DNA from: a virus
Lineage: Duplodnaviria > Caudoviricetes
DNA length: 64,000 nucleotides
Virus record (IMG/VR): IMGVR_UViG_3300033487_000003
Location: 18,900 to 82,899 of that record
Strand: one strand, 5' to 3'
Positions 11,484-28,248 of the stretch are shown in pieces (the first letter of the stretch is position 1; each line of letters opens with the position of its first letter). A program made the position numbers and the translations under genes. Below the pieces are notes generated by a model. The model worked only from the letters and a program-made list of their open reading frames with translations. It was not told where the DNA came from and did not search any database.

Positions 11484-11720
11484 CCACCCCGTTACGTGTT
11501 ACTACGGGGTAGAGCAAAATATGGTGGCTGGTAAACCACCATGGCAGCCAAGAAACCGCGTACCATAGCTCATGACGCGAGCGTACGAACGCTCACGTAC
11601 CTTTGTGATCTACAGAACGTGTGGACGGACGGACAACGACGCCCTCTCCCCGGAGAGGGCGTCGCCGTATCTACCCACCGAGATCGTGTGACTTTCACCA
11701 GCTCCCTTTATGATCACTAC

Positions 11721-12050: not shown

Positions 12051-12054
12051 TGAG

Positions 12055-14112
12055 ATGGTCGGTATCCCCCGGCAACGCAAGCCGGCCGCCAAAGACCAGA
12101 AACCCACCATCGAACAAGACCCCGCAATCGCTGACGCAAACCGCCGCGCACGGGCGATTGACCATGCCGAGCAGCTGGCCTACGTCGAAGAGCAACGCCG
12201 TAAGCAGCTGGAAGACGAACTTACCCATCCCGCACCAATAGACCCGGAGATTCGTCACGTTGCCCTGAAAGCCGCCGCGACCCGAACCCACACCATCACA
12301 GCGGCGGTTAGCCGGGTAGAACTCGACGGCGTCAGCTGGAAAAGCTACCGATTCGGTGACCGTGCCTGGCAGGCTGACGCGTGGCGACTGTACGACATAA
12401 CCGGACAACTCAGATTCGTGTCGAACTGGGCCGGGAACTGCCTCTCCCGCTGCATCCTACGCGTCCACGAGGTCGACGAGCAAGGAAACATTGGTGCGGC
12501 GGTCGAGAATCCGGAGATCGCACAGCTCGGATCCGGCCCACTAGGGGTAGGTGACTCCCGCGCGGAATCACTCCGACTGTGCGGCATTGACCTGTTCGTG
12601 TCCGGTGAGGCATTCCTGATCGCCGAGGCCGAGGGTAGCCCAGACGGCTCTGATCTCTGGTGGGTAGTGACCGCCAGACAGATCAAGCGGAATGGCGACG
12701 TCATCACCATTCCCCGCTCACCCCTCCACGGTGGTGGAATATTCACCTACCGTGATGGTATTGATCTGATCCTACGATGCTGGACCCCTCACCCCAACGA
12801 CACCAACGAACCAGATTCCTCAACCAGATCCGCGATTCCGGACCTACGGAAAATGGAAGCCATCCGCAAGAGAGAATTCGCGGAACTCGACTCCCGTCTG
12901 ATCGGCGCCGGAGTCATGTTCGTCCCAGACAGCATGGACCTTCCCCGGGGAGAAGACGACCCACAGGGACCTGAAGGATTCTCCGCGCTCCTGATGCGCA
13001 CCATGGCAGCATCGTTGCGCGATCGGTCCTCGTCCGCCGCCATGGTGCCGATCATCGTGCAGGGCAACGCCACCGACATCGACAGGGTCAAGCATCTAAC
13101 ATTCTGGTCGCCGATGTCGGAACAGCTGTCCGGCATGTGGCAGAACACCCTGATCAGCCTGGCCGAAGATCTCGACGTCCCACCCGAGGTCATGACCGGA
13201 CTCGGCGGGTCGAATCATTGGAGTGCCTGGGCGGTCAGTGACGCTGCGGTCACCGAACAGATCAAGCCATTGGCGTCCCGGATAGCCTCCGCCCTGACCA
13301 TCGGCTACCTCTGGCCAGCGTTGGAAAGCCTCGGCGTCGAAGACGTCACCCAGTTTGCCTACCAGTTCGACACGGCACTGCTGACGGTCCGACCGAACCG
13401 ATCCAGCGATGCGATGACCTACCACACCGCTGGTTTGATCTCCGACGAAACCGCGCGTACCGCCGGAGCGTGGGGAGACGACGATGCCCCATCCGAAGAG
13501 GAACGCGCACGACGTATCGCCGAGCAACTTCTCCTGTCCGCACCACAGATCGCCCTCGCCGACCCCGGTATCCGTCAGCTCCTTTCCCTCCCGGAAATAG
13601 GTGCGGTACCAGCGAACACAGACCAGGGACCGACCGGAGAGCAGCCAGCGCTCGAACCCGGTAACGAGGAGAACGGGCCACCAGACACGCAACCCCAGGG
13701 GACCGACGGCCGCCCCGACGACCAGCAATCCCCACCACCACCAGTAGCAGCGATCGACCTCCATGGCTTGGACGTCGCACTTACCCTCATGGCACGTAGG
13801 GCTATGACCCTCGCCGGACAGCGTCTGGTACCACACACCCAGCGCTCCCGGTATGGCAAGGTTCCTGGATACCAGCTTTCCGCCAAACACGGCGCCGTAC
13901 TCGCCGATCAGGTGTCCACCCTGCTCGCTAAAGCCTGGACTGACCTTGACATGGTCGCCCTACGGTACCGACTGGACACCACAGCACTGACAGAGCTCAT
14001 GGACGGGTTCTGCCGGGAACTACTGATCCGAGGTATCGCCTATGGAGACGACCTCCTGAAGGACCTACTGTCCTCTCCAAACGTCATCCGGAGGTTGACG
14101 AACCATGTCTGA
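12055..14112 (+). CDS. portal protein
   Basis: Position after terminase; WQADAWRLYD..GQLRF, WTPHP, R.IGAGVMFVP, L...LDVPPEV.TG...SNHWSAW. Confidence 0.9.
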   Translation: MVGIPRQRKPAAKDQKPTIEQDPAIADANRRARAIDHAEQLAYVEEQRRKQLEDELTHPAPIDPEIRHVALKAAATRTHTITAAVSRVELDGVSWKSYRFGDRAWQADAWRLYDITGQLRFVSNWAGNCLSRCILRVHEVDEQGNIGAAVENPEIAQLGSGPLGVGDSRAESLRLCGIDLFVSGEAFLIAEAEGSPDGSDLWWVVTARQIKRNGDVITIPRSPLHGGGIFTYRDGIDLILRCWTPHPNDTNEPDSSTRSAIPDLRKMEAIRKREFAELDSRLIGAGVMFVPDSMDLPRGEDDPQGPEGFSALLMRTMAASLRDRSSSAAMVPIIVQGNATDIDRVKHLTFWSPMSEQLSGMWQNTLISLAEDLDVPPEVMTGLGGSNHWSAWAVSDAAVTEQIKPLASRIASALTIGYLWPALESLGVEDVTQFAYQFDTALLTVRPNRSSDAMTYHTAGLISDETARTAGAWGDDDAPSEEERARRIAEQLLLSAPQIALADPGIRQLLSLPEIGAVPANTDQGPTGEQPALEPGNEENGPPDTQPQGTDGRPDDQQSPPPPVAAIDLHGLDVALTLMARRAMTLAGQRLVPHTQRSRYGKVPGYQLSAKHGAVLADQVSTLLAKAWTDLDMVALRYRLDTTALTELMDGFCRELLIRGIAYGDDLLKDLLSSPNVIRRLTNHV

Positions 14113-14368
14113 CAAACCAAAGATCGACGCGCTAGAAGCAGCCCAGTCGTCACCAAACGCCATGGTCAATGCTCGGGGCGACGTATTCTACCCAGACGAC
14201 GGAACAGAAGCAGCATGGTTCGCCATCGAACACGGAGCACGTCCCCTGTCTCCTGACCGGTTCCCATTCACTCCAGATCCGTTGACGGTCAAATATCTCT
14301 GGCCAGCGTTGAAAAGCCTCGACGTCGATGACGCCACCCAATATCGCCTCGAATGGGAACAGCAGTGA
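14105..14368 (+). CDS. small protein whose C-terminus copies a portal segment
   Basis: LTVKYLWPALKSLDVDDATQY vs portal LTIGYLWPALESLGVEDVTQF. Confidence 0.6.
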   Translation: MSDKPKIDALEAAQSSPNAMVNARGDVFYPDDGTEAAWFAIEHGARPLSPDRFPFTPDPLTVKYLWPALKSLDVDDATQYRLEWEQQ

Positions 14369-15177
14369 CCGAACCGTGGACCGGAGAAGGTACTGACCCG
14401 TGGCTTCCTGACCGGATCGGATTCGCCGAACAGGCCGCCGCCGCTGAGATGGCGGTACGTAAGCAGATATGGGCCGAACTGTCCGGCTGGCTGGTCGACG
14501 TGTCCCGCGTGGTTCTTGCCACGGCGCGTCCCGATCCGGTCGCAGTGTTCTCTCAGCAGCCGGCCTGGTCAGCTGCTGTGAACCGGATCGTGTCGGACAC
14601 GATCACCGACACGATCGGTACCGCGTACAAGACGATGCTCGGCGATGATTATCGGTTCGAGTCGCGGCCGATGGTCGTTGATCACCTCGCTCAGGTCACC
14701 AACCGCATGGTCCGTACCCCGGATCAGGTCTTCGATCTGGTGGCGTCCGAGGTCGCCAGGGGTGCTGAGCTGGGCGAGTCGATTCCGAAGATCGCCAATC
14801 GAATCGAGGATGTGCTTGACGTGACGCGCACGGAGCGTTGGGCTAACCGGGCGACCGTGGTAGCTCGTACGGAGACGATGGGCGCGCTGAACGCAGGTCG
14901 TACCGGGGCGTTCGCGGCGGTTGCCGAGGAGACCGGCGACGAGTTCGAACAGGTGTGGTTGGCGACGATCGACCGCCGCACCAGGTCCACGCACAAGACA
15001 GCAGATGGGCAACGGGTTCCGGTTGGGCAGCCGTTCATGGTTGGTGGCGCGTCTCTGAGGTATCCGGGTGATCCTCTCGGACCGGCCAAAGAGATCATTC
15101 AATGCCGATGCTCGTCTTTGCTTGTGGAGCCTGGCGAAACGCTGGACCTGTCGAATCGTCAGTTTCGGACGGGGTGA
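14365..15177 (+). CDS. MuF-like minor head (head morphogenesis) protein
   Basis: ARTET..A.NAG, WLAT.DRRTR.TH..ADGQ, LRYPGDP, IQCRC. Confidence 0.9.
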   Translation: MTEPWTGEGTDPWLPDRIGFAEQAAAAEMAVRKQIWAELSGWLVDVSRVVLATARPDPVAVFSQQPAWSAAVNRIVSDTITDTIGTAYKTMLGDDYRFESRPMVVDHLAQVTNRMVRTPDQVFDLVASEVARGAELGESIPKIANRIEDVLDVTRTERWANRATVVARTETMGALNAGRTGAFAAVAEETGDEFEQVWLATIDRRTRSTHKTADGQRVPVGQPFMVGGASLRYPGDPLGPAKEIIQCRCSSLLVEPGETLDLSNRQFRTG

Positions 15178-15419: not shown

Positions 15420-17291
15420 ATGGGCACACGGTGGCGGGGCATGCTCGCCCCACTAGGAATACCAACAGGAGACGGACGCCGGTTTCTCGCCGACGGCATC
15501 ACCTACCGAGAACTCCCCCTTGCGCTGAAATGGCAACGCACCGACGAGGGAGGACACGACACCTCAGTCGTCGTCGGACTGGTCGACACGATCGACGTCC
15601 AAACCGACGCGGCGTGGGGAGAAGGAGAATTCTTCGATGACCTAGACCCAATCGAGTTTGAGCGTCTCCTGAAAGACGTCCGAGAGGCCATGCTCCTTAC
15701 CGGCAAGAAGGTCATCGGCCCGTCCGTCGACCCTGGTGCGGTAGAGATGGCCTACGTCAGAACAGGTGATGACACTCCCCTGACCAGTGATGAGCTTGAC
15801 GAGCTCTTCTGGGAAGAGATGGAGACCGGAGAACCCACCCAACTGGAACTCCTGTTCACCAAATACGAGATCAGCGCTGCGACCCTGGTCACAACCCCCG
15901 CGTTCGCCGAGTGTCGTCCGTTCGAACTCCTCGAACCAGCCCTGACCGCAGCCATTCGCTCATCAGGATGGGATCAGTTCCCACTGGGCGCGCGGGAAGC
16001 CGAATGGGACGAATCAGAAGCAGAGCGCCGTATCGCCGACGACGCGGGTATCGGGGGAGACAACCCCGACTGGGCCCGGTACGCGGAGGCGTTCCTGTAC
16101 CGCGAGGACGACGCCGACCCAGAGCTGAAAGGATCGTACGGGTTCCAGATCATTGACGTAGTCGATGGTGAGCGGGTCATCATGCCCCGAGGAGTGTTCA
16201 CCGTCGCTGGGGTGCTGGAAGGATCGATGGGGGGAACCAACATCCCCGACCAGGATCAGCAGAACATGAAGGAAGTCGTTTCCGGCTTGTACGAGAGGAT
16301 GGCCGAGGAGTTCGACGACGACACGATCGTCGTACCGTGGGAAACGTCCGCGTCGTCGTCCGCCGCCCTGGTCGCGTCGTTGACCGCCGCCGCTGCGACG
16401 CGCGTGTACGACCTCGCAGCGTTCGCGCCACCCGAGACCCCAGAGGACGGATTGGTCGGCCTGACCGTCACCGACGACGGTAGGGTGTACGGACACATCG
16501 CCGCCCACGACGTGTGTCACCTCGGCATCCCCGGGGTGTGCATGACCGCCCCGGTCGACCTCGTCGGATTCGACCAGTTCCACCGCTACCCGGTAATGGG
16601 CTCCGACGGGGAGCCGATCGCGGTAGGACGCCTCACCTACGGTGGGGGAAAGTTCGCCCACGCCTGTTCCTGTTGCCGGGGCAGTGACGATCACGCGTGC
16701 AATGCCCTGTCGATGGGTGGGGCGATCGCCCACCACGACCAGATGACCACCGTGGCGTACGTGCGCGCGTGGGAAGACGCGGCGAACAACGCGATCAGAA
16801 TTTCGGGGGTCCTTGCCGAGGGTGTGACCGCCGATCAGATCAAGGCACTTGCCCGGGGACGGGTATCCGGGGACTGGCGGGCATACGGTACCGATCTGGC
16901 CCTGACAGAGATCCTGGTGCTCTCCCGAGAACGCCCTGGGTTCCCGCTGCCACGGGGTCGGATGGCAAATCAGCGGATGATGGCGCTGACAGCAGCCGGA
17001 ACGATCAGTCCGCGCCGTAAGAGCATGGCCGCTACCGTCCCGGACATCGACTACGAACGGTTGGCTGGGCTGATCGCGGACAGACTGACGTCGGCTGGTC
17101 TGCTCTCCAACGGGGTGGACAACACCACCCGGCAGGATGACGAGCGTCCTGTTGACAGCGCCGATACTGGTCAAACCGGTGAGGTGGAGAACCTGGTCGC
17201 CGAGCTGGGCGTGATCTTCGCAGGACGCGACGAGGTGGAAGCCCGCCGGTTGGCGGGAGAAGTGGAGATGATCACTTATGTGCTGCGGTAA
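15420..17291 (+). CDS. prohead maturation protease/scaffold-type protein
   Basis: Position after MuF; TGDGRRF, GRVYGHIA.H..CH, SGDWR, PGFP..R motifs typical of actinophage head proteins. Confidence 0.75.
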   Translation: MGTRWRGMLAPLGIPTGDGRRFLADGITYRELPLALKWQRTDEGGHDTSVVVGLVDTIDVQTDAAWGEGEFFDDLDPIEFERLLKDVREAMLLTGKKVIGPSVDPGAVEMAYVRTGDDTPLTSDELDELFWEEMETGEPTQLELLFTKYEISAATLVTTPAFAECRPFELLEPALTAAIRSSGWDQFPLGAREAEWDESEAERRIADDAGIGGDNPDWARYAEAFLYREDDADPELKGSYGFQIIDVVDGERVIMPRGVFTVAGVLEGSMGGTNIPDQDQQNMKEVVSGLYERMAEEFDDDTIVVPWETSASSSAALVASLTAAAATRVYDLAAFAPPETPEDGLVGLTVTDDGRVYGHIAAHDVCHLGIPGVCMTAPVDLVGFDQFHRYPVMGSDGEPIAVGRLTYGGGKFAHACSCCRGSDDHACNALSMGGAIAHHDQMTTVAYVRAWEDAANNAIRISGVLAEGVTADQIKALARGRVSGDWRAYGTDLALTEILVLSRERPGFPLPRGRMANQRMMALTAAGTISPRRKSMAATVPDIDYERLAGLIADRLTSAGLLSNGVDNTTRQDDERPVDSADTGQTGEVENLVAELGVIFAGRDEVEARRLAGEVEMITYVLR

Positions 17292-17474
17292 CACGATCGC
17301 CAGGAACTACGGTCAGGCAGGCGACAGTCAGCAGACAGGGTGGGTCGTGACCTACCCGAACGGAGCGACCGAGACGAAGACGACTGAGGTCGCCGCGCGG
17401 TTGGCCGCAGCCCTGGTGCCTGGGGCGAAGTATGTCAAGGCTGAGACATCCGTGTGACATTGACAGTGTGATGA

Positions 17475-17506
17475 TCGAGGCGCGGACCACCCGGTCCGCG
17501 CCTCGA
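17475..17506 (+). terminator. 14-bp perfect hairpin at left edge of glycosyltransferase cassette
   Basis: tcgaggcgcggacc-accc-ggtccgcgcctcga. Confidence 0.55.
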
Positions 17507-17522: not shown

Positions 17523-17789
17523 ATGATTCAGCCAGACACCACTCCTAGGATCACCTGGGCTGTGCTGACGGTCCAGGACAGCGACGGCAAGGTCAGCGTC
17601 ATGGAGATCCCGGTCGGTAACAACATCGATGTGGAGTACGAAACTAGTTACAGGGAGTCACCGTATTTTCTTCTCGATGAGACGGTACCTGTGTCTACGA
17701 GATCTCTCGGACAGAAATTGACAGTCGTGATCGAGGCGACGGTGGGAAACCCGAATGTGCCCCTGATGGTGCTGAGGGGCCATGGATGA
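17523..17789 (+). CDS. hypothetical protein
   Basis: AGGGAG RBS; ATGA overlap with next gene. Confidence 0.65.
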   Translation: MIQPDTTPRITWAVLTVQDSDGKVSVMEIPVGNNIDVEYETSYRESPYFLLDETVPVSTRSLGQKLTVVIEATVGNPNVPLMVLRGHG

Positions 17790-18454
17790 GCGGATACACG
17801 GACGCCGATCTTGTGATCCTCGTTCCGATGTTGGGACGGCCGCAGCACGTCGCTCCACTGTTGGCCACGATCGAGGCGACGGTCCCGAACGCCGAGGTGT
17901 TGTTCCTGTGTTCCCCGCAGGACTGGGCAGTTCTTGACGAGATCAAGAGCGCGGATAGGTCGTACGTCGAGGTTCCGTACTACCCGGTTGGTGACTACGC
18001 CCGGAAGATCAACAGGGGGGTGTTCGCCACCACCCATTCGCTGATCTTCCTTGGCGCGTCAGACCTCGCGTTCTACCCGAACTGGTTCGAACACGCGATC
18101 GAACACCTCCATCCCGGGATCGGTGTCGTAGGAACCAACGACCTCGGAAACGCGCGAGTCATCGCCGGAACCCACTCCACCCACTCCCTTGTGACCAGGG
18201 AATACGCCGCCCTGGGAACCATCGACGCCCGAGAGAAGTTGCTCCATGAGGGCTATCACCACGAGTTCGTCGATGACGAGTTCATAGAAACTGCCCGATT
18301 CAGACAAGCGTTCGAAATGGCCCCAGAATCGATCGTCGAACACCTACACCCCAACTGGGGAAAGGCCACCACCGACCCGCTCTACGACCAACAACGACGC
18401 CGCATGGCCTACGGCCATCGGCTCTACAACCACCGGAGACGACTGTGGCAATGA
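17786..18454 (+). CDS. glycosyltransferase, GT-A fold (GT2-like)
   Basis: ILVPMLGRP, KINRG, FLGASDL (DxD variant), FVDDEF. Confidence 0.8.
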   Translation: MSGYTDADLVILVPMLGRPQHVAPLLATIEATVPNAEVLFLCSPQDWAVLDEIKSADRSYVEVPYYPVGDYARKINRGVFATTHSLIFLGASDLAFYPNWFEHAIEHLHPGIGVVGTNDLGNARVIAGTHSTHSLVTREYAALGTIDAREKLLHEGYHHEFVDDEFIETARFRQAFEMAPESIVEHLHPNWGKATTDPLYDQQRRRMAYGHRLYNHRRRLWQ

Positions 18455-18669
18455 CCCTTTCCCTGAGCGACCACGGCCCGACGATTCCACGCGAGCAGAG
18501 CATGAACACAGCAATCGCACAAATTGGATGGATTGGAAAGACCGGAACCGTGTACCGACTCGACCAGCCACCCACGAGCAGTAGCGAACCGGGAGGTTTC
18601 GCACCGCTGCTGATCTCCGTCGGAACGTGGGAACACCTCGGAAACGAACATTGGGGTATCCATGACTGA
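18451..18669 (+). CDS. hypothetical protein
   Basis: Overlaps both neighbours at stop/start. Confidence 0.55.
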   Translation: MTLSLSDHGPTIPREQSMNTAIAQIGWIGKTGTVYRLDQPPTSSSEPGGFAPLLISVGTWEHLGNEHWGIHD

Positions 18670-19273
18670 CGTGACCATCCTGGTCGCCACCTACGGTGAT
18701 CAGGCATGGGAGCACCTCGCTCAGGTTCGTGCGATCCCATCGGCACAGGAGCAGGGTGTTCCGGTCATACACCGCCATGGCGCGACATTGCACGAGGCAC
18801 GTAACGCCTGCCTGCACGCGGCGCGAACCACGTGGGTCGTACACCTGGACGCCGACGACGAACTAGAAGACCACTACATCACCACCTTGATGAGCGGATC
18901 ATCCGACGTCCGTGCCCCATCAGTGCGCTACGTGCAGGGCAACTACGCCCAACCACCACGGGTCCCCACCGTCTACGGACATTCGCACACCTGTACGGCA
19001 GAGTGTTTGCCCTACGGGAACTGGATCATCGTCGGAGCGCTGGCACGCAGACAGCTGCTCATCGACATTGGTGGATGGCGTGACTTCAGCTGGTCGGAGG
19101 ACTGGGACCTCTGGTTACGTTGTCACCTCGCCGGCGGAAGTATCGAGACAATCCCACAAGCCATCTACCGCGCACACGTCCGACTCGCCTCCCGTAACCG
19201 GGCAGCCAGCCACGAGCAACGCCTGGCTGTGCACCGCGCGATCGCCCAAGCGAATGGAGTACCCATACCGTGA
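18662..19273 (+). CDS. glycosyltransferase family 2
   Basis: ARNACL, HLDADDEL, IGGW, EDWDLWLR. Confidence 0.9.
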   Translation: MTDVTILVATYGDQAWEHLAQVRAIPSAQEQGVPVIHRHGATLHEARNACLHAARTTWVVHLDADDELEDHYITTLMSGSSDVRAPSVRYVQGNYAQPPRVPTVYGHSHTCTAECLPYGNWIIVGALARRQLLIDIGGWRDFSWSEDWDLWLRCHLAGGSIETIPQAIYRAHVRLASRNRAASHEQRLAVHRAIAQANGVPIP

Positions 19274-20283
19274 CGCAATTCGACCCGTACGCGCTTCTCG
19301 GCCGTGATCCGATCCAGATCAACCCCGACGGTTCGTACCTCACGGGCAAACGGGTTCTGGTCACCGGGGCTGGTGGGTCGATCGGATCCGTGATCTGTCG
19401 ACACGTCACCCGGTTCAACCCCGAAGAGCTGATCATGCTCGACCGGGACGAGTCCGCGCTTCACGCTGTCCAACTCGCCCTGACCGGTCGCGCCCTTCTC
19501 GCCGACGCGTCAACCATCCTCGGTGACCTCCGTGACCGTATGTGGATCTATCGGATTCTGACCCAACGGCGTCCCGAGATCGTGTTCCACGCGGCTGCCC
19601 TCAAGCACCAACCGCTCTTGGAGCGCTTCCCTGGTGAGGCGTTCAAGACCAACGTCCTCGGCACCCGGAACCTGGTACAGGCAGCGATGACCATCGGCGT
19701 AGGTGTCCTCGTGAACATCTCAACCGACAAGGCCGCTAACCCGTGCTGTGCGCTCGGTACGTCGAAGCGGATCGCCGAGCGCCTGGCATCCGGGTGTGCT
19801 CCCCGCCAGTACGTTTCCGTTCGGCTCGGCAACGTTCTCGGGTCGCGGGGATCGATACTGGAGACGTTCTCAGCCCAGTTGGATGCCGGCGTACCGCTGA
19901 CCGTGACCGACCCAGGCATGATGCGGTTCTTCATGACCGCTGACGAAGCGGTGTCCCTGATCGTGCACGCGGGGGCGATTGGGCGACCGGGTGAGGTGCT
20001 AGTACCCGACATGGGAACACCTGTACGAATCGTCGACATCGCCGAGCGGATGATATCCATGACCAGAGGAAATGGGAAGATCGCATACACGGGACTACGA
20101 CCAGGGGAGAAGGTGAACGAAGAACTTCTAGGGGCGGGGGAGCGCGACGAACGCCCATACCATCCGATGATCTCGCAGATTCCAGTTCCCGCGCTTACTT
20201 CGTCCGCGCTGAACATCGTCACGAGTTCCGACAACGGCTTTCCTGAGATCGCACAACAGATGATCACACTATGTAATCAATAA
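19270..20283 (+). CDS. UDP-N-acetylglucosamine 4,6-dehydratase, CapD/PglF/FlaA1-type (soluble catalytic domain only)
   Basis: VLVTGAGGSIGS, FHAAALKH, TNVLGT, STDKAANP, LGTSK, GNVLGSRGS, RFFMT, GLRPGEK. Confidence 0.92.
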   Translation: MTQFDPYALLGRDPIQINPDGSYLTGKRVLVTGAGGSIGSVICRHVTRFNPEELIMLDRDESALHAVQLALTGRALLADASTILGDLRDRMWIYRILTQRRPEIVFHAAALKHQPLLERFPGEAFKTNVLGTRNLVQAAMTIGVGVLVNISTDKAANPCCALGTSKRIAERLASGCAPRQYVSVRLGNVLGSRGSILETFSAQLDAGVPLTVTDPGMMRFFMTADEAVSLIVHAGAIGRPGEVLVPDMGTPVRIVDIAERMISMTRGNGKIAYTGLRPGEKVNEELLGAGERDERPYHPMISQIPVPALTSSALNIVTSSDNGFPEIAQQMITLCNQ

Positions 20284-20294
20284 GGAGGCGTTTG

Positions 20295-21005
20295 GTGAAC
20301 GACGAGCAAACGATCGCCCTGGTCATCATCGGCGACGGCCGCGACGACTACCTCCGGAAGTGCGTCACCTCACTGCACTACCTCTCCGGGCCCATCGTCG
20401 AACTGTGGATGTACGACGACACCGGAGACCCGATCTACCGCGACGACCTCGCCAGGCGATACCCGCCCTTTCGACACATCAACGGCGGACCACGCCAAGG
20501 CTGCGCAGGGGCATTTCAGCAGGTCTGGCGACAGGTCCGCAAAGACACCACGGCCCGGTTCGTGTTCCTCGTAGAGCAGGATTTCCGGTTCATCCGCCCG
20601 GTAGACCTCGTTGGAATGGCCGATCTCCTCGACGCTCGTCCGCACCTCGCCGAGGTAGCGCTACGTCGGCAGCCGTGGAACGAGGTCGAGAAAGCCGCCG
20701 GGGGCATCGTCGAGTCACACCCCGACTGGTACATCGACATGGAGGACGACGCCGGTCGGCAGTGGCTAGAGCAGGGCGCGTTCTTCACCACGAACTGTCC
20801 CTTGTTCCGCACGTCCCTTCTCGACGTCCCCTGGCCAGACTCGCGACCAGGCTGCTACTCCGAAGGCACCTTCCACCAACACCTCAAGATCCACGGAACA
20901 CCCGAGGTACCGGGAGATCAGGTCACCTACGCCTACTGGGGTGCCAGAGACTCCGGGGTATGGGTAGAACACATCGGCCAACACCGGATAGGAACAGGGT
21001 ACTGA
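20295..21005 (+). CDS. putative glycosyltransferase (GT-A)
   Basis: AAGGAGG RBS; MYDD, FLVEQDF, FTTNCPL, VEHIG..R.G.GY. Confidence 0.75.
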   Translation: MNDEQTIALVIIGDGRDDYLRKCVTSLHYLSGPIVELWMYDDTGDPIYRDDLARRYPPFRHINGGPRQGCAGAFQQVWRQVRKDTTARFVFLVEQDFRFIRPVDLVGMADLLDARPHLAEVALRRQPWNEVEKAAGGIVESHPDWYIDMEDDAGRQWLEQGAFFTTNCPLFRTSLLDVPWPDSRPGCYSEGTFHQHLKIHGTPEVPGDQVTYAYWGARDSGVWVEHIGQHRIGTGY

Positions 21006-21007
21006 TC

Positions 21008-21727
21008 ATGCTCACTGTCATCGTCCCCAGCCGTGGCCGTCCGGACGCGATGCTCGACCTGATCAATTCTGTGGTCGATACCCGACAGGTCGCCACGACG
21101 AACGTGGTGCTCGCCGTTGACGACACTGACCCGATGCTCGACCTGTACGAAGAAGTGGTCAACGTTCGACCAGACGTCAGCAGACTGGAGGTCGTACGCG
21201 GTGGGTGGATGGTCGCCGCCCTGAACGAGGCCGCCCAGCGAGTCGTGGCGGACCCAGCCGTAACCGCTGTCGGATTCCTCGGAGACGACCACCGACCACG
21301 CACGAAAGGCTGGGATGCCGCCTATCTGACCGCCCTACGACAGATGGGTGCGGGAATCGTCTACGGTGACGACCTTCTACAGCACGACTTCGTACCAACC
21401 CAGTGCGCGATGACAGCAGACATCATCCGACGAGTGGGATGGATGGCTCACCCGTCGCTACGGCACATGTACGTCGACACGCTGTGGCGAGACATGGCCA
21501 GAGGAGTCGGCAAGCTCCGCTACCTTCCGGACATCGTCGTTGAGCACCTTCACTACCTGAACGGAAAGGCGATCGAGGACGACGGCTACAAGCGCGTCAA
21601 CGACCCGCAGGTCTACAAGGCCGACGAGGATGCGTTTCGGCGACTCCACGCGACTGGGGTTGTCCGGTCGGCGTCCGAGGTGATCCGGCAGCTGGCGAAC
21701 GTCGCACTCAACCAAAAGGAAATGTAG
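21008..21727 (+). CDS. glycosyltransferase (GT2-like)
   Basis: VIVPSRGRP, ALNEAA, FLGDDH, GIVYGDD, H.YVD, EHLHY. Confidence 0.85.
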   Translation: MLTVIVPSRGRPDAMLDLINSVVDTRQVATTNVVLAVDDTDPMLDLYEEVVNVRPDVSRLEVVRGGWMVAALNEAAQRVVADPAVTAVGFLGDDHRPRTKGWDAAYLTALRQMGAGIVYGDDLLQHDFVPTQCAMTADIIRRVGWMAHPSLRHMYVDTLWRDMARGVGKLRYLPDIVVEHLHYLNGKAIEDDGYKRVNDPQVYKADEDAFRRLHATGVVRSASEVIRQLANVALNQKEM

Positions 21728-21822
21728 TGAGCATATACGAGTTCGTTATTCCATTACCAACTGTAATGGAATGTGGAAGATGTCAAAACGCACGCCGAAA
21801 CGTCGGAGGTGAGAAGTTGTGA
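21727..21822 (+). CDS. 31-aa peptide with CxxC, coupled at both ends
   Basis: TAGTG overlap upstream, GTGA overlap downstream; MSIYEFVIPLPTVMECGRCQNARRNVGGEKL. Confidence 0.45.
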   Translation: MSIYEFVIPLPTVMECGRCQNARRNVGGEKL

Positions 21823-22832
21823 AAGTTCTTGTGACAGGATCTTCTGGATTTGTTGGTCGGCACATGTGCGAGCAGCTAAAACGTCTCGGATGGGACGTTG
21901 TTGGTGTCGACCAGAATAAAAATCGTAACGTATTGCAGAAGTTGACATTTTCGTCTGACAGCATTTTTGATGAGGAAAAGCCTTGGAACGTGTTCGTGCA
22001 TTCTGATGTACGGACCATCTTCTGGGAACGCTGTCGTCCTTTCTCCGAGAATGTCTTCGACGAACTGGCGGAAACCAGATACGACCTGGTGGTGCACTGC
22101 GCCTACCACGTCGGTGGGCGGGCTGCGATCGATGGAAACCCGTCGCTCCTGGCTCTGAATCTGGAACTCGACGCGCGGCTGTTCGAGTGGGCGGTCCGTA
22201 CCCGACAGCGCGCGGTCATGTACTTCTCGTCGTCGGCGGTCTACCCGATCAAGTATCAGCAGGGCGGGAAGCAGCCACCGCTGTCTGAGCACCTGATCAG
22301 TGTTGATGGTCCGGTTCAGCCTGACGCGCGGTATGGGTGGGCGAAGTTGACCGGGGAACATCTGGCAGATGCTGCCACGACGCAGGGACTACGGGTCCAT
22401 GTGCTTCGGCCGTTCTCTGGGTATGGGGCTGACCAGGACGACACCTACCCGTTCCCAGCTATCTTGGCTCGGGTCCTTGCTGGTGACCTCTCCGTGTGGG
22501 GACCACCTGGTCAGATCCGTGACTGGATCCATATCGACGATGTGGTTGGTGGTGCGCTTGCGGTCTACGAGAAGGATTATCGGGAACCAGTCAATTTGTG
22601 TACCGGGGTTGGTACGGAGTTCGGCGTTCTGGCCACGATGATGGCGCGGCGATTAGGAATCGATGTCGGTGCTGTTGATCCCCGGGGGCGCGCTGAGCGG
22701 GTGACGTATCTAGAGGATCGACCAACGGGAGTATTGTGTCGGGTTGGTGATCCGACAAGGATGTTGAATATTTATGAGCCAGAGATTGGTCTTGATGAGG
22801 GAATTCGTCGCGCGATTGGTGACCTAACTTGA
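21819..22832 (+). CDS. NAD-dependent epimerase/dehydratase (extended SDR)
   Basis: VLVTGSSGFVG, FSSSAVY, YGWAK (YxxxK), RPFSGYG, RDWIHIDD. Confidence 0.92.
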   Translation: MKVLVTGSSGFVGRHMCEQLKRLGWDVVGVDQNKNRNVLQKLTFSSDSIFDEEKPWNVFVHSDVRTIFWERCRPFSENVFDELAETRYDLVVHCAYHVGGRAAIDGNPSLLALNLELDARLFEWAVRTRQRAVMYFSSSAVYPIKYQQGGKQPPLSEHLISVDGPVQPDARYGWAKLTGEHLADAATTQGLRVHVLRPFSGYGADQDDTYPFPAILARVLAGDLSVWGPPGQIRDWIHIDDVVGGALAVYEKDYREPVNLCTGVGTEFGVLATMMARRLGIDVGAVDPRGRAERVTYLEDRPTGVLCRVGDPTRMLNIYEPEIGLDEGIRRAIGDLT

Positions 22833-22936
22833 CCTGCGATCAGAGATCTTATGACACGATTCGATCCGAGACCGATGTGATCGAGGACATTGTGGGGAAT
22901 GGAATCAGTAAGACGCTCGCGGAGGTGTGGTCGTGA
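22829..22936 (+). CDS. 35-aa peptide coupled at both ends
   Basis: TTGA overlap upstream, GTGA overlap downstream; MTCDQRSYDTIRSETDVIEDIVGNGISKTLAEVWS. Confidence 0.35.
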   Translation: MTCDQRSYDTIRSETDVIEDIVGNGISKTLAEVWS

Positions 22937-23733
22937 AGGTCGTTGGTATCTCAATGGTCCGTAACGAAGCGGACATCATCGCACAAACCGTGCTTCATAT
23001 GGCGTATCACTGCGACCACCTGATCGTCTCCGACAACATGTCGGACGACGGCACCCGAGAGATCCTGGACTACCTCGCCGAAGACCTTCCCCTCGACGTC
23101 GTCACCGACTCGGATCCGGCGTACTACCAGTCCAGGAAGATGACTTCCCTTGCCGAGCTGGCCGCGACCAGGTTTGGCGACGAGGATCTGTGGATCGTTC
23201 CGTTCGATGCCGATGAACTGTGGAATCCGTGGGATGATCCGAACCAGCCGATCCGGGAACTACTGGTCGACCGACTGTGCTGCGTCGCGCAGGCCGCCCT
23301 GTTCGACTACCGGGCAACGGCCCTCGATCCCCCCGGGATCTATCCGGTGAAGACGATGCAGTGGTGTACGGCGAAACCCGCAGGGTTGCCGAAGGTCGCC
23401 TTCCGGTGGCAGGAAGGAGCGCGGATCCATCAGGGCAACCACGGGGTGGACCTACCCGACGGCGGGTCGACGGAGATCCTTCTCCGCGTCAACCACTTTC
23501 CCTACCGATCCGCGTCGCAGTTCGTGTCGAAGGCCCTTCAAGGCGCTGCCGCGTATGCGGCCACTGATCTGCCCGAGGACATGGGTGCACACTGGCGCGC
23601 ATACGGTCGGCTATACCAGACCTATGGGCAACAGGTCTTGGAGGATGTGTTCCGACAGTACTTCTGGACGTTGTCTCCGACAGATAGCGACCTGATCCAC
23701 CAGCCGGTCACCTACCACGGGGACGATCTGTGA
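22933..23733 (+). CDS. glycosyltransferase family 2 (Glyco_tranf_2_4-like)
   Basis: MVRNEADII, DNMSDDGT, PFDADE, HQGNH, HFPYRS. Confidence 0.88.
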   Translation: MKVVGISMVRNEADIIAQTVLHMAYHCDHLIVSDNMSDDGTREILDYLAEDLPLDVVTDSDPAYYQSRKMTSLAELAATRFGDEDLWIVPFDADELWNPWDDPNQPIRELLVDRLCCVAQAALFDYRATALDPPGIYPVKTMQWCTAKPAGLPKVAFRWQEGARIHQGNHGVDLPDGGSTEILLRVNHFPYRSASQFVSKALQGAAAYAATDLPEDMGAHWRAYGRLYQTYGQQVLEDVFRQYFWTLSPTDSDLIHQPVTYHGDDL

Positions 23734-24485
23734 CCAGCGTTGGTGTGGTGATCCCCTGGTACCAGAAAGGTCCGGATCCGTGGCGTGAGCGGGCACTGGC
23801 TCATGTGCGCGCCTGGTGGGACACGGCTTTTCCGGGGAGAGTCGTCCTTGGGACCATCAGTAGCGACGATGGACCATGGCGTAAGGGCCTCGCCGTACAC
23901 CGGGGGATCGCCGAACTCGACGCGGAGATCGTTGTGGTTTCCGACGCGGACGTGATTTGCGAGGGAGTAGACGACGCAATCGCTCAGATCAGCCGGTTTG
24001 ACGTCGGTTGGGCAATCCCGCATCGCATGGTCTGCCGACTGACGGCGGACGCCACGACCATGCTGCTACAGGACAACACCTACCCGCCTACTCCGACCCG
24101 CACCGGGGTAACAGGTCCCCACTACGCGGAGGTCTATCCTGGCGCTCCCGGTGGTGGCCTGGTCGTTCTCCCCCGAAGACTCCTGGAGGATGTTCCGATC
24201 GACCCGCGTTTCTGCGGCTGGGGTCAGGAGGACTACGCCTGGGCAAGGGCGCTGACGATGATCGCCGGACATCCGTGGCGAGGACGTTTCCCCCTGTTCC
24301 ATCTCTTCCATGAGCCACAGCAGCGAATGAGCCGAGGTATCGGCTCGTCGGACAGTCACAGATTGTGGCAGCGTTATCACACTGCCCCGAATCTTCCGGT
24401 CATGCTGGACCTGATCGAGGAAGCACGGAAGGCTCTCCACACGACGACCGAGAAGACATTGTCAGATCCGCTGGCTACAATCTAG
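23730..24485 (+). CDS. glycosyltransferase (GT2/GT7 galactosyltransferase-like)
   Basis: VVIPW, VVSDADV, GGGLVV, DPRFCGWGQED, HLFH. Confidence 0.88.
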   Translation: MTSVGVVIPWYQKGPDPWRERALAHVRAWWDTAFPGRVVLGTISSDDGPWRKGLAVHRGIAELDAEIVVVSDADVICEGVDDAIAQISRFDVGWAIPHRMVCRLTADATTMLLQDNTYPPTPTRTGVTGPHYAEVYPGAPGGGLVVLPRRLLEDVPIDPRFCGWGQEDYAWARALTMIAGHPWRGRFPLFHLFHEPQQRMSRGIGSSDSHRLWQRYHTAPNLPVMLDLIEEARKALHTTTEKTLSDPLATI

Positions 24486-24528
24486 ACTTGTCGTGGTCCT
24501 TGAGGGGCCGACGTCGAAACGCATTCAC

Positions 24529-24559
24529 ACAATGTCCCCGACCACGCCGGGGACATTGT
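24529..24559 (+). terminator. hairpin at right edge of glycosyltransferase cassette
   Basis: 12-bp stem acaatgtccccg/cggggacattgt. Confidence 0.65.
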
Positions 24560-24711
24560 CATTTCCGACCAGGGTATCTCGTGCTACCTTCCCATTAGCG
24601 ATCATGTGATCTGGTGCTGCTACGGTCCGGCTAGATCTTCCGATCGTGGGACGACGCACCAGCGCTGCCATGGTCCGGCTGGGTGTCGCGCTTCCGTGAG
24701 GAATCACGACC

Positions 24712-26481
<1,770 letters not shown>

Positions 26482-26522: not shown

Positions 26523-27302
26523 ATGGCAATCACACCCAGGATGGTCGTCGATCCTCCAGAGCCCCGTGGTTTGCGGTACGGGCTGTTCGTCGTCGCCAAC
26601 GGCCCGAACGACCTCTTGCCGCACGGGGCTGCGGGTGGGGTGACCTACGACCCGGTGTCCTGCGGGCAGGCGCGCTACTACGACACGGCGTGCGGGGGTG
26701 ACGGGGGCGAGAAGACCTTCGACTCCAACGACGCGCTGATCACGGCGAACCCATTCACCGTGTACGCGTCGCTGACGTGCGGTTCCGCTGGTAGGACTGC
26801 GGCCGAACTGGAAACGAAGGTCCTGCGACGGCTGGCCAACGGAGAGCAGACGATCGCCGAGTACGGAATGGGTCTGGTTCTGGCAGCCGGTGCGACACCG
26901 CTCGCACCAGCTGACGGAACGATGACCGGGGTTGTCGCGGACCTTGAGGGCTGGCTGTACGGGATCGGCGGGGCCAACTACGGCAACGTTGGCTACCTGC
27001 ATGCCTCGTCCAGGATGGCCGCGTACGCGGCAGAAGAGAGCCTGGTGGTTCGTGACGGACCGCTGCTGAAGACCCCATTGGGATCGATCTGGTCTTTCGG
27101 TGGTGGCTATCCGGACAACGGAATGATCTACATCTCTGGTCAGGTGACCGTGTGGCGAACCCCGGGGATCTTCGTGACGCCACCTGGACAGGTCCTCAAT
27201 CTGACCACGAATCAGTACTACATGCTTGCTGAGCGGGAGTACGCGGTGGCGTACGACTGCGTGGCGGCATCAGCGGTATTCGATTGGATGCCACTTTCAT
27301 GA
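26523..27302 (+). CDS. conserved capsid-associated/minor structural protein
   Basis: Directly after MCP; RYGLF, PFTVYAS.TC, AEREY.V.YDC. Confidence 0.65.
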   Translation: MAITPRMVVDPPEPRGLRYGLFVVANGPNDLLPHGAAGGVTYDPVSCGQARYYDTACGGDGGEKTFDSNDALITANPFTVYASLTCGSAGRTAAELETKVLRRLANGEQTIAEYGMGLVLAAGATPLAPADGTMTGVVADLEGWLYGIGGANYGNVGYLHASSRMAAYAAEESLVVRDGPLLKTPLGSIWSFGGGYPDNGMIYISGQVTVWRTPGIFVTPPGQVLNLTTNQYYMLAEREYAVAYDCVAASAVFDWMPLS

Positions 27303-27553
27303 TCATTATCAAGAATGTTCCTGGGCTCACCACGCCCGAAGTCATGGCGGCGATCGCTGACCAGGTCCCACTCGAACAGGTCGAAACCGGCTATGGCGGA
27401 ATCGTCGTCAACGAACGCACCGCCCTGACCTTCCTTCAGCGATACCTCGCGGCGGTCGACGGCGAACCACTCAGTACGAGCGAGGTACCCCCACCAGAGG
27501 GAACAACCAGGGCGCGCAGCCCTCGGAAGAGGAAAGAGGAGGTGGCGCCATGA
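27299..27553 (+). CDS. hypothetical protein
   Basis: ATGA overlaps at both ends. Confidence 0.65.
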   Translation: MIIIKNVPGLTTPEVMAAIADQVPLEQVETGYGGIVVNERTALTFLQRYLAAVDGEPLSTSEVPPPEGTTRARSPRKRKEEVAP

Positions 27554-28248
27554 CGGCAACCTGCGACGAGTTCCTCCAGGGCTTCGCCGTTCGGCTGACC
27601 AAACTTGACACCTGTGGGGCGGTGGTCGCCGGAGCCTGCTCGACAGCCATCTCCGAGGGGTTCATCAAGGTTGAACTCGAAGCGGACGAGGCCGATGGTG
27701 AGGAGATCGAACAGACCCTAGCCAACGGAAAGCGCTGCTACTACCGCAAGACCGCTAAGCAGCTCAACGGGTACACGGTCAATATCGAATTCTGTAACGT
27801 GGACCCGGAGCTGTTCAACATCGCCACCGGCGTCAGTTTGATGCTCGACGATGCGGCATCGCCGGTGGCGCAGGGTTTCGCCGTCGACTCAGCTACCTAC
27901 GCCACGGCGCATTTCGCCCTGGAGATCTGGACGGATCTATCAGACGGTGGATGCCTGGACCCCAGTGGTCGCAAGTGGGGATACATGCTCCTACCGTGGC
28001 TGCACAACGGCACGGTGTCACCACCGACGATCGAGAACGGGTCGGCAAACTTCATCGTCAATGAGGCGATGACCCGCGACGGTAACCAGTGGGGTGTGGG
28101 GCCGTACAACATCCAGACCACTCAGCTGGGTGTGCCGTCGCCGTTGTTCTCCCCGATCACTTCGACGACGCACTACGTCCTGTATAAGGTAAACACCGCT
28201 CCGCCAACGGGAGTGTGTGGTTGTCAGACCCTGGTACTGCCCACCTGA
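27550..28248 (+). CDS. major tail protein
   Basis: RLTKLDTCG, FCNVDPELF, FALEIW, WGYMLLPW, WGVGPY; followed by terminator. Confidence 0.82.
   Translation: MTATCDEFLQGFAVRLTKLDTCGAVVAGACSTAISEGFIKVELEADEADGEEIEQTLANGKRCYYRKTAKQLNGYTVNIEFCNVDPELFNIATGVSLMLDDAASPVAQGFAVDSATYATAHFALEIWTDLSDGGCLDPSGRKWGYMLLPWLHNGTVSPPTIENGSANFIVNEAMTRDGNQWGVGPYNIQTTQLGVPSPLFSPITSTTHYVLYKVNTAPPTGVCGCQTLVLPT

Follow-up and report, generated by a model that had tools for sequence, protein, structure and literature searches.

A putative virion O-glycosylation cassette between a protease-like gene and the major capsid gene of an uncultured actinophage

Organization of the cassette and its flanks

The window analyzed in this work is a 64,000-nucleotide stretch of the genome of an uncultured phage, whose hosts are actinomycete-type bacteria. 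At 17523–24485 it contains a cassette of ten mostly overlapping ORFs (g1–g10), all on the same strand. The cassette, its flanks and the structural genes that follow are listed below.

15420–17291, +, left flank: head protein similar to Rosebush gp13 and phiAsp2 Pas7 (phrog_21470, 1e-103; phrog_18402, 3e-19)
17278–17457, +, 59-aa ORF starting MCCGN, outside the cassette, between it and the protease-like gene
17475–17506, +, upstream hairpin, 14 bp, GC-rich, without a U tract (-31.7 kcal/mol, z -7.3)
17523–17789, +, g1, 88 aa, with a good Shine-Dalgarno sequence
17786–18454, +, g2, GT-A glycosyltransferase (phrog_14945, 8e-7; AF2 model)
18451–18669, +, g3, 72 aa, overlapping both neighbours
18662–19273, +, g4, GT2 glycosyltransferase (PF13632, 41 bits)
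19270–20283, +, g5, PglF/WbpM/CapD-type UDP-GlcNAc 4,6-dehydratase, soluble, N-terminally truncated (PF02719, 300.8 bits)
20292–21005, +, g6, GT-A/GT2-like glycosyltransferase (phrog_3047, 1e-9)
21008–21727, +, g7, GT-A glycosyltransferase (phrog_14945, 1.5e-37)
21747–21773, +, 11-bp hairpin in the 91-nt spacer preceding g8 (z -3.9)
21819–22832, +, g8, extended-SDR nucleotide-sugar 4-epimerase or 4-ketoreductase (PF01370, 130 bits)
22927–23733, +, g9, GT2 (Glyco_tranf_2_4) glycosyltransferase (PF13704, 47.6 bits)
23730–24485, +, g10, GT-A glycosyltransferase of the Che8 gp109/Corndog gp37 family (phrog_1721, 1e-14)
24529–24559, +, downstream hairpin, 12 bp (-20.9 kcal/mol, z -5.9)
24712–26481, +, major capsid (hexamer) protein (MCP), ending ...GCCHS, proposed acceptor (phrog_777, 5e-140)
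26523–27302, +, Rosebush gp16-like protein, ending ...MPLS, proposed acceptor (phrog_779)
27550–28248, +, major tail (tube) protein, ending ...LVLPT, proposed acceptor (phrog_792, 1e-71)

The ten genes comprise six GT-A glycosyltransferases, the g5 dehydratase, the g8 SDR protein and two small ORFs, g1 and g3. The initial annotation described an eight-enzyme cassette: all eight enzymes were recovered, and the two small ORFs bring the gene count to ten (g3 had not been mentioned there). From g1 to g10 the junctions measure -4, -4, -8, -4, +8, +2, +91, +94 and -4 nt, so that the description of a mostly stop/start-overlapping run is correct. None of the ten products contains a hydrophobic segment, and all are predicted to be soluble. 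No homologue of g1 was present in any relative locus retrieved, and none was found for g3.

As had been proposed, the cassette separates a protease-like gene from the MCP gene, with the 59-aa ORF, a positional counterpart of Rosebush gp14 (start MACGC), also intervening. Residues ~328–540 of the 15420–17291 product gave tblastn matches to annotated capsid maturation proteases; Pfam and PDB searches with this product gave no match. Both hairpins said to bound the cassette were confirmed. The upstream one looks like a terminator-like or RNA-processing boundary ahead of the cassette, and the downstream one sits in a 226-nt structured leader (z -3.5) preceding the MCP gene.

The glycosyltransferases

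Pfam and PHROG matches, acidic motifs and, for g2 and g10, AF2 models agree with the earlier assignment of six genes to GT-A glycosyltransferases. The g2 model (pLDDT 93) has a GT-A fold matching PcManGT, WrtF, GpgS and SpsA; D93 and H186/H188 are invariant, and the acidic motif is ASD, where its family counterpart is ADD. This gene is a distant paralogue of g7, in which the conserved acidic motif is GDD. The ORF listed for g7 (20360–21727) includes an upstream extension, and its start was placed at the ATG at 21008, where the domain begins; in distant relatives this domain forms a fusion with Methyltransf_24 and is encoded elsewhere in the genome. In g4, which also matches phrog_14775 (2e-8) and phrog_8858 (8.5e-6), the DADDE motif is invariant, DAD being the conserved acidic motif. 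The g6 product falls just below the PF00535 cut-off (23.1 bits against 23.3) and retains an invariant E95-x-D97 (acidic motif EQD), while FDADE is invariant in g9 (acidic motif DAD). The g10 model (pLDDT 93) has a GT-A fold like those of beta4GalT, ppGalNAc-T and chondroitin synthase, with a conserved DAD motif.

The sugar-remodelling enzymes

The CapD/PglF-type dehydratase proposed initially is well conserved in g5, whose best solved relative is Campylobacter jejuni PglF (PDB 5BJU, E 2.6e-58). The NAD-binding site of PglF (GxxGxxG), the T-D-K catalytic motif (STDKA) and the downstream Lys are retained, and at the position of the canonical SDR Tyr both proteins have a hydrophobic residue (Met in PglF, Leu in g5). 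Compared with PglF, WbpM and CapD, the phage-borne g5 product is only 337 aa long and has no membrane or CoA_binding_3 N-domain. Its closest cellular relatives among the matches listed are mostly actinobacterial proteins of 400–590 aa, many with a PF13727 N-domain. By tblastn, the dehydratase was found in no cultured actinophage. Since g5 has no partner aminotransferase or acetyltransferase, the bacillosamine route is not encoded.

The second enzyme, g8, had been called an SDR epimerase. It is indeed an extended SDR, with a YGWAK motif; both an epimerase and a 4-ketoreductase fit. Its profile matches GME, MoeE5, GalE and Fcl to a similar degree, and an invariant Ala140 replaces the Cys acid/base of 3,5-epimerases. 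The gene is isolated between the two long spacers, and its GC3 (0.595) is below that of its neighbours. Judged from contigs of equal length in the two sets of matches, homologues of g5 and g8 occur together on at least 15 phage-sized contigs; g8 is also present without g5 in four loci (L006, L009, L010 and L087), so that a role of g8 as the reductase of the g5 product is not required.

Recurrence of a core module in virion structural operons

The distribution of the cassette genes was studied in 54 loci that encode a g10 homologue with no less than 5 kb of sequence upstream. A core module opening with g2 and continuing with g4, g6, g9 and g10 was found in this fixed order in 19 of them. In every case it was embedded in an operon of virion structural genes; at least two head-gene lineages with no relation to each other were represented, as were prophage-like loci of actinomycetes. 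In the lineage of the window (L087, L107, L124 and L007) the module lies downstream of the protease-like gene and upstream of the MCP gene. In an unrelated siphovirus lineage (TerL phrog_19179, portal phrog_104, MCP phrog_1328) it lies between the head-tail adaptor Ad1 and head closure Hc1 genes, and in Actinomycetota genome contigs (Parafrankia, Patulibacter, Nostocoides and a Mycobacterium MAG) it is downstream of phage TerL/portal relatives. The cassette is not unique, and metagenomic actinophages and prophages commonly have smaller versions of it; that of the window is the largest among the loci compared, with two modules joined and the dehydratase added.

The commonest cassette member in the census was g10, frequently the sole transferase of related structural operons, and this wide distribution makes it a candidate for the initiating protein O-transferase.

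Comparison with known systems

Virion O-glycosylation is known in mycobacteriophages Che8 (gp108–110), Corndog (gp35–38) and Myrna, whose virion proteins are glycosylated (PMC12363180; PMC11256854; PMC4351075). Two cassette members belong to the same families: g10 shares phrog_1721 with Che8 gp109 and Corndog gp37 (blastp with the latter, 1e-12 over 195 aa), and g4 shares phrog_14775 and phrog_8858 with the N-terminal transferase domain of Che8 gp108. The enzymes are likewise soluble GT-A proteins, and the host range is likewise actinobacterial. Che8 had been cited as an example of transferases in the virion region; however, its transferase genes are located at the right genome end, outside that region. 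[quoted passage not shown]

The window differs from these systems in having six transferases rather than two or three, in the added UDP-GlcNAc 4,6-dehydratase and SDR epimerase/reductase, and in its Rosebush/phiAsp2-type structural genes, which belong to another lineage. Che8 gp110/Corndog gp38 (phrog_854) is essential for capsid glycosylation (PMC12363180). No counterpart was found in the window cassette, and hhalign of g6 against these two proteins gave probabilities below 10%. SAM methyltransferases are present in the cassettes of relatives as they are in Che8 and Corndog, which favours a virion target; they are likewise absent from the cassette of the window, and the lack of both counts against such a target.

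Caudovirales GX15bay (MK557849), a metagenomic phage from mangrove soil deposited with carbohydrate-enzyme annotations only, encodes homologues of g4 and g9 (33–39% identity). Both belong to a seven-gene run that consists of six transferases and one methyltransferase, with no dehydratase or SDR, and is located upstream of the terminase gene rather than in the protease–capsid slot.

C-terminal residues of the putative acceptors

The Che8 MCP and tail tube protein and the Corndog MCP all end in Gly-Ser. The Che8 glycans are reported to be at the C-termini (Freeman et al. 2023, Cell Host Microbe 31:1216). Terminal hydroxyl residues are also present in the window, as His-Ser (MCP), Leu-Ser (gp16-like protein) and Pro-Thr (tail tube). 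Rosebush gp16 is annotated as the major capsid pentamer protein, and we read this together with the phiAsp2 pas15 note.

In the lineage of the window, all nine g10 carriers have an MCP with a C-terminal Ser (Ser/Thr in 11/50 records without g10), and Ser/Thr ends their pentamer (9/9 vs 17/50) and tail tube proteins (9/9 vs 29/46). Of the 17 unique MCPs accompanied by g10 in the second lineage, 16 end in Ser, compared with two of eight without it (Fisher 0.001). The association is confounded by phylogeny. The g10 carriers of the window's lineage all form one clade, and a Ser end is also seen in many of its records that have no g10.

Possible function of the cassette

The homology to Che8 and Corndog enzymes, the placement in structural operons, the Ser/Thr termini and the absence of parts needed for DNA or envelope targets support the virion glycosylation proposed initially, and the cassette probably O-glycosylates the phage's own virion proteins. 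In the scheme below we infer the acceptor proteins and residue, the transferase order and the sugar identities. A phage-encoded cytoplasmic pathway would modify the major virion proteins while the late genes are expressed. The first sugar would be attached by g10 to the Ser/Thr at the C-terminus of three proteins (capsid hexamer, capsid pentamer and tail tube), and g9, g6, g4, g2 and g7 would lengthen it into a hetero-oligosaccharide. Host UDP-GlcNAc would be converted by g5 to UDP-4-keto-6-deoxy-GlcNAc, and g8 would either reduce this product, giving a donor of the 6-deoxy-HexNAc kind (QuiNAc or FucNAc type), or 4-epimerise a UDP-sugar independently of g5, supplying the transferases with donors that the host may not provide. 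The resulting glycan may be a longer one, with 6-deoxy or epimerised sugars. The cassette would be an enlarged form of a system that has been demonstrated for just a few mycobacteriophages. Surface shielding or stability may be the benefit.

The same enzymes could instead synthesize or modify a glycan of the host cell envelope, on a host-primed lipid or cell-wall acceptor, serving superinfection block or release. Surface-polysaccharide loci of bacteria typically contain GT2/GT-A enzymes and PglF-type dehydratases, the nearest cellular g5 relatives among the matches listed are actinobacterial polysaccharide-biosynthesis proteins, and soluble GT-A enzymes often act on undecaprenyl-phosphate-linked acceptors. 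However, no priming transferase (PF02397, PF00953) or PF01041 aminotransferase was found in the genome, none of the ten soluble products has a membrane segment and the membrane N-domain present in cellular relatives of g5 has been lost from it; the module lies in late structural operons of unrelated phages and co-occurs with Ser-terminated capsid proteins. An envelope target is therefore unlikely. Transfer of sugars to the DNA of the phage, known from T-even phages and others whose hydroxymethyl-pyrimidines are glycosylated, appears very improbable. Hypermodification of DNA with diverse glycans by phage transferases has been described (Pyle et al. 2024, as cited in PMC12619734), and this genome invests in DNA modification, with queC, queD, queE and folE at 5874–8439. 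Yet no hydroxymethylase of the thymidylate-synthase family (PF00303), which would create the acceptor base, was found in the genome. The 7-deazaguanine route, to which the que genes belong, involves no sugar transfer; moreover, the cassette is in the head module, distant from these genes, and the C-terminal Ser association indicates proteins.

It is also doubtful that the cassette serves an auxiliary metabolic function or another target, such as a small molecule or a non-structural protein of the phage or its host, with the head-gene site being merely permissive. The slot between the protease-like and MCP genes is a hot spot whose contents vary widely among relatives (in phiAsp2 it holds six unrelated genes on the reverse strand), the flanking hairpins are moron-like, and the GX15bay cluster lies away from head genes. 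A neutral insertion site does not, however, explain why the module recurs among head genes of at least two types that are unrelated, and after phage TerL/portal relatives in actinomycete contigs, and the membership of two cassette proteins in PHROG families of Che8 virion-glycosylating enzymes, together with the C-terminal Ser association, points to virion proteins.

Although their hosts are eukaryotic and their capsids unrelated, giant viruses (chloroviruses, mimivirus/megavirus) also encode transferases and nucleotide-sugar enzymes for their own virion glycans, including UDP-GlcNAc 4,6-dehydratase-type steps.

Organization of the cassette and its surroundings

The IMG/VR viral record that contains the window is 82.9 kb long (estimated completeness ~93%), and the head and tail genes of the window are of the type known from Rosebush and the Actinoplanes phage phiAsp2. 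Ten ORFs of the + strand, g1–g10, are located between a protease-like gene and the gene of the major capsid (hexamer) protein (MCP).

Features of the cassette and the adjacent structural genes (window positions)
12055–14112: portal (phrog_776)
14353–15177: MuF-like protein
15420–17291: 623-aa protein, similar over residues ~328–540 to proteins with the annotation "capsid maturation protease"
17523–24485, + strand: cassette g1–g10, with predicted glycosyltransferases g2, g4, g6, g7, g9 and g10 and small ORFs g1 and g3
19270–20283, + strand: g5, predicted PglF/WbpM-type dehydratase
21819–22832, + strand: g8, extended SDR
24712–26481: MCP (phrog_777; 43% identity to phiAsp2 Pas14; C-terminus ...GCCHS)
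26523–27302: Rosebush gp16-like protein (annotated in Rosebush as "major capsid pentamer protein"; C-terminus ...MPLS)
27550–28248: major tail (tube) protein (C-terminus ...LVLPT)

The initial annotation had described six glycosyltransferases, a dehydratase and an SDR bounded by hairpins. All of these were recovered, but the two small ORFs g1 (88 aa) and g3 (72 aa) had been left unmentioned or uncharacterized. No relatives of g1 and g3 were detected in Pfam, PHROG, NCBIfam, the fetched loci or the ESM Atlas; in the latter, g1 gave weak leads to small viral beta-sandwich/tail-tube-like clusters, under the reliable feature count, and g3 gave no lead. The successive junctions from g1 to g10 are -4, -4, -8, -4, +8, +2, +91, +94 and -4 nt. 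Three hairpins, at 17475–17506 (z -7.3), 21747–21773 (z -3.9) and 24529–24559 (z -5.9), are far more stable than shuffled sequence. They lack U tracts, and scans for sigma-70 promoters and intrinsic terminators gave no matches above chance. None of 50,697 phage records matched the cassette in a megablast search; the closest relative is a 79.5-kb JGI contig, with g5 and g10 at 72–75% identity.

In phiAsp2 (L001) the equivalent slot between the protease-like and capsid genes (5567–8298) is occupied by six reverse-strand genes of unknown function. Foreign DNA tends to accumulate in this hot-spot slot in phiAsp2-like phages, and since it holds unrelated genes in phiAsp2, the position of the cassette is by itself weak evidence of its role.

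Glycosyltransferases of the cassette

Six cassette proteins resemble glycosyltransferases. Two of them, g4 and g9, score above the Pfam GT2 thresholds and g6 falls 0.2 bit short, while g2, g7 and g10 are picked up by PHROG profiles. When g10 and g2 were modelled with AlphaFold on alignments of natural homologues, both models reached a pLDDT of 93, and all their top Foldseek matches were GT-A enzymes. An acidic motif of the DxD type (DAD, GDD, ExD or xDD) is kept in every transferase family. The modelled fold of g10 and g2, together with this presumed metal/nucleotide motif in all six, identifies the cassette transferases as predicted GT-A enzymes. No hydrophobic segment was found in any cassette product.

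Similarity to the glycosylation genes of mycobacteriophages

The virions of Che8, Corndog and Myrna carry glycosylated proteins, and Che8 gp110 and Corndog gp38 have been named as essential (PMC12363180). [quoted passage not shown] Comparison with the cassette revealed that: (i) g10 shares phrog_1721 with Che8 gp109 and Corndog gp37 (E-value 1e-14 for g10, 1e-110 or better for gp109 and gp37), and g10 aligns to Corndog gp37 over 195 residues in a pairwise blastp comparison (1e-12); (ii) g4 resembles the transferase half of Che8 gp108, both matching phrog_14775 and phrog_8858 (2e-8 and 8.5e-6 for g4); while (iii) Che8 gp110 and Corndog gp38 belong to phrog_854, which no cassette protein matches. 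In hhalign comparisons of the g6 family with gp38 and gp110 the probabilities were 0.7% and 9.6%, which is not significant. Unlike the Che8/Corndog-type system, the ten ORFs of the window include no sugar O-methyltransferase partner; a SAM methyltransferase is present in the cassettes of four relatives (L006, L007, L009 and L153). The cassette is probably an enlarged variant of the known virion-glycosylation systems.

It should be mentioned that phrog_2675 (RefSeq pas34 of phiAsp2, NC_005885, 28945–29643), labelled "DNA methyltransferase", is a GT-A domain. In the two members checked (L167, 1342–3234, and L168, 475–2262, - strand) it is fused to Methyltransf_24. The label is therefore probably wrong, as this arrangement resembles the transferase–methyltransferase fusion of Che8 gp108.

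The only GenBank phage record with homologues of g4 and g9 is that of the metagenomic phage GX15bay (L206, MK557849). It contains a run of seven genes upstream of the terminase (8127–13250), composed of six transferases and a methyltransferase, and a further GT2 beside genes annotated as endoglucanase and mannanase.

Distribution of the cassette genes

Scanning of IMG/VR with the MCP revealed 79 related loci. Among these, cassette genes are confined to the closest clade (MCP identity 54–59%) and always lie upstream of the MCP gene. Their set varies: L007 carries g4 to g10; L006, L009 and L010 carry g7, g8 and g10, with a SAM methyltransferase added in L006 and L009, the two checked for it; L003 carries g9 and g10; and L004, L005 and L013 carry g10 with other genes. 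The g10 profile, which recovered five of five positive controls, found no match when run over the entire records of 50 more distant relatives, of which 25 are at least 90% complete. Of the complete distant relatives, about half (phiAsp2 among them) have instead a g7-like domain at another place in the genome, of the family that PHROG and RefSeq label "DNA methyltransferase". It is fused to Methyltransf_24 in the two cases checked, and open frames of ~600–800 aa suggest that the remaining g7-like proteins may also be such fusions.

Scans with the g10 profile yielded 80 loci from metagenomes and 37 from GTDB genomes. Over all scans, 54 loci had a g10 homologue and at least 5 kb of upstream DNA. 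The order g2-g4-g6-g9-g10, hereafter the core module, was found in 19 of the 54, g7-g8-g10 and g6-g10 in four each, and g10 alone in 21. In L087 the genes g2-g4-g6-g7-g8-g9-g10 lie right behind the portal, MuF and protease-like genes. It follows from this census that the window joins two recurrent modules and adds g5, g1 and g3; among the loci examined, g5 is common only to the window and L007.

A second lineage with the core module consists of siphoviruses whose structural genes are unrelated (TerL phrog_19179, portal phrog_104, a 327-aa MCP of phrog_1328, tail tube phrog_117). Here the module lies between the head-tail adaptor Ad1 and the head closure protein Hc1, in some cases accompanied by a methyltransferase or an SDR. 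Besides, it was found behind phage TerL/portal relatives on contigs assigned to Parafrankia soli, Patulibacter, Nostocoides and a Mycobacterium MAG, and a single g10 was found behind second-lineage MCP relatives in Streptomyces phytophilus and a Solirubrobacterales MAG. Nearly all of the better matches with an organism label belong to Actinomycetota (a few MAG contigs are labelled Gammaproteobacteria, Midichloriaceae or Paceibacterota), which is consistent with the kinship to phiAsp2.

C-terminal residues of the virion proteins

The 2023 study of Freeman et al. is reported to have located glycans on the C-terminal ends of the subunits that form the capsid and the tail tube. The Che8 MCP (gp6, ...KTGS), the Che8 tail tube (gp11, ...SDGS) and the Corndog MCP (gp41, ...LVGS) all end in Gly-Ser. 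The window proteins also end in a hydroxyl residue, Ser in the MCP and the pentamer protein and Thr in the tail tube, a likeness of sequence signature only.

In the window's lineage, Ser or Thr ends were found in all nine g10 carriers for each protein, against 11 of 50 g10-free relatives for the MCP, 17 of 50 for the pentamer protein and 29 of 46 for the tail tube. In the second lineage, Ser is the last residue of 16 of 17 unique MCPs encoded in loci with g10, compared with two of eight in g10-free relatives with 4 kb or more of downstream DNA (Fisher 0.001). The sole exception among the carriers appears truncated, and most g10-free MCPs end in Ala; the tail-tube proteins of this lineage nearly all end in Ser. 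All these counts are confounded by shared ancestry, the carriers of the window's lineage being a single clade; nevertheless, two capsid families that are unrelated to each other show the pattern, and so do the phages with proven glycosylation. It is the terminal residue alone that distinguishes the groups: the Ser/Thr fraction in the last 30 residues of the MCP and tail tube does not separate carriers from non-carriers. We consider the chances evenly balanced that the C-terminal Ser/Thr is the glycan acceptor.

Nucleotide-sugar enzymes

The g5 protein matches Polysacc_synt_2 (PF02719) with 300.8 bits against a curated cut-off of 20.2, and its best solved relative is PglF of C. jejuni (E-value 2.6e-58). 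Both its NAD-binding site and its STDKA motif are intact: TGAGGSIGS and ISTDKAANPCCALGTSKR of g5 align with ISTDKAVRPTNIMGCTKR of PglF, with GxxGxxG, T-D-K and the downstream Lys present. The position of the Tyr of classical SDRs is occupied by Leu in g5 and by Met in PglF. With 337 aa, g5 is devoid of the N-terminal membrane/CoA_binding_3 domain of the full-length cellular enzymes. Its nearest relatives among the listed matches are other ~335-aa forms on phage-sized contigs, followed at 55–60% identity mostly by longer actinobacterial enzymes (~400–590 aa), many of which, at 500–590 aa, have an N-terminal PF13727. The PglF match and the shorter length indicate a PglF/WbpM-type catalytic domain that has lost its membrane anchor. 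With good confidence we predict a reaction of the UDP-GlcNAc 4,6-dehydratase type, the product presumably being UDP-4-keto-6-deoxy-GlcNAc, as established for the PglF/WbpM family.

The inverting enzymes PseB and FnlA were rejected as identities of g5, since it scores 168 with TIGR03589 and 127.9 with TIGR04130 against NCBIfam equivalog cut-offs of 407.75 and 730, respectively. The bacillosamine route is not encoded, as there is no DegT-type aminotransferase in the genome. In cultured phages, tblastn with g5 revealed only doubtful Listeria/Staphylococcus "phage" fragments and weak cyanophage matches. An IMG/VR scan with the g5 protein alone found no relative; relatives were reached through the MCP and the g10 profile.

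The g8 protein is an extended SDR (PF01370, Epimerase, 130 bits) in which the catalytic Ser/Tyr-x3-Lys residues are represented by invariant S137/S138, Y172 and K176. Its family profile gives similar scores (1e-22 to 1e-24) with GDP-mannose 3,5-epimerase, MoeE5, GalE and GDP-fucose synthase. In the alignment to GDP-mannose 3,5-epimerase, the only one used for this point, an invariant Ala140 stands opposite the Cys of the SSAC motif, which we take to be the catalytic acid/base residue. On this alignment a 3,5-epimerase was rejected, and the Ala leaves a 4-epimerase or a 4-ketoreductase as candidates. Homologues of g5 and g8 occur on the same contig at least 15 times (contigs being equated by matching size), so functional coupling of the two is plausible from their co-occurrence; g8 homologues without g5 are found in L006, L009, L010 and L087. 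We put forward only tentatively that g8 acts as a reductase for the g5 product. Its GC3 is 0.595, compared with ~0.63–0.78 in the other cassette genes, and it is isolated by spacers of 91 and 94 nt (21728–22926), the upstream one containing the 21747–21773 hairpin. These features suggest that g8 was acquired independently and later than its neighbours, or that it is regulated on its own.

Possible function of the cassette

The initial interpretation, glycosylation of the virion, gained support from homology, from recurrence in structural operons and from the C-terminal Ser/Thr pattern, and we consider it the probable function. Particular weight comes from the fact that structural operons of different types share one module. 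Glycosylation would be a late, cytoplasmic O-linked reaction, with the Ser/Thr at the C-terminus of three proteins (capsid hexamer, capsid pentamer and tail tube) as acceptor. The first sugar would probably be attached by g10, given that it is the universal member and that some loci have no other transferase; the five remaining transferases would lengthen the chain, and a donor of the 6-deoxy-HexNAc type would come from g5, alone or together with g8.

Alternatively, the cassette could direct an undecaprenyl-phosphate-dependent surface glycan or seroconversion of the host. As a self-contained pathway this is weakened by the absence of the priming transferases PF02397 and PF00953 from the genome and of hydrophobic segments from the cassette products, although host enzymes could do the priming. 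Against glycosylation of DNA argues the lack of PF00303, the thymidylate-synthase family that would supply a hydroxymethyl-pyrimidine acceptor, in the 82.9-kb record, while control genomes score. The DNA-modification genes of the window (5874–8439) are queC, queD (PTPS), queE (radical SAM) and folE, all confirmed by Pfam, so the phage is able to make a 7-deazaguanine precursor.

Returning to virion glycosylation, a broader and more speculative proposal can be made, which we rate below an even chance: the core module is a transferable "glycan-coat" module that goes together with capsid and tail-tube proteins tagged by a C-terminal Ser/Thr, and this system is widespread in phages and prophages of Actinomycetota. 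The window would be its most elaborate form, with three major virion proteins bearing a hetero-oligosaccharide that contains a 6-deoxy-HexNAc from a phage-borne, anchor-free PglF-type dehydratase. To our knowledge, glycosylation of phage particles, which alters antibody recognition, has been shown only in a few mycobacteriophages. If the proposal is true, virion glycosylation would be common among environmental actinophages and prophages, a mobile five-transferase module with a simple C-terminal acceptor tag would move between unrelated structural operons, and phage-encoded sugar-nucleotide enzymes could enlarge such a system; this would be the first virion glycan of a tailed phage made from a phage-produced nucleotide sugar. 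A g10-type enzyme together with Ser/Thr-ended capsid and tail-tube proteins would then predict glycosylated phages, and the cassette would offer a compact enzyme set to place defined glycans on protein C-termini. The idea is testable at the bench, as two cultured strains, Parafrankia soli NRRL B-16219 and Streptomyces phytophilus PIP175, carry related modules on phage TerL/portal contigs.

Other features of the structural region

A 59-aa ORF (17278–17457) that begins with MCCGN overlaps the end of the protease-like gene. Its positional counterpart is Rosebush gp14 (57 aa, beginning with MACGC), whose middle section is alike; a family search with the ORF gave no match. The 226-nt leader located 5' of the capsid gene (24486–24711) folds at -97 kcal/mol (z -3.5 versus shuffles) and may have a role in the stability or processing of the highly expressed capsid message. 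Finally, most of the closer phiAsp2-like relatives (L001–L061) possess Cys-rich protein ends whether the cassette is present or absent: ...GCC with 0–5 further residues in the capsid protein and ...CGCQxLxxx in the tail-tube protein (26440–26481 and 28200–28248 in the window). Disulfide formation, metal binding or another modification are possible roles of these ends.
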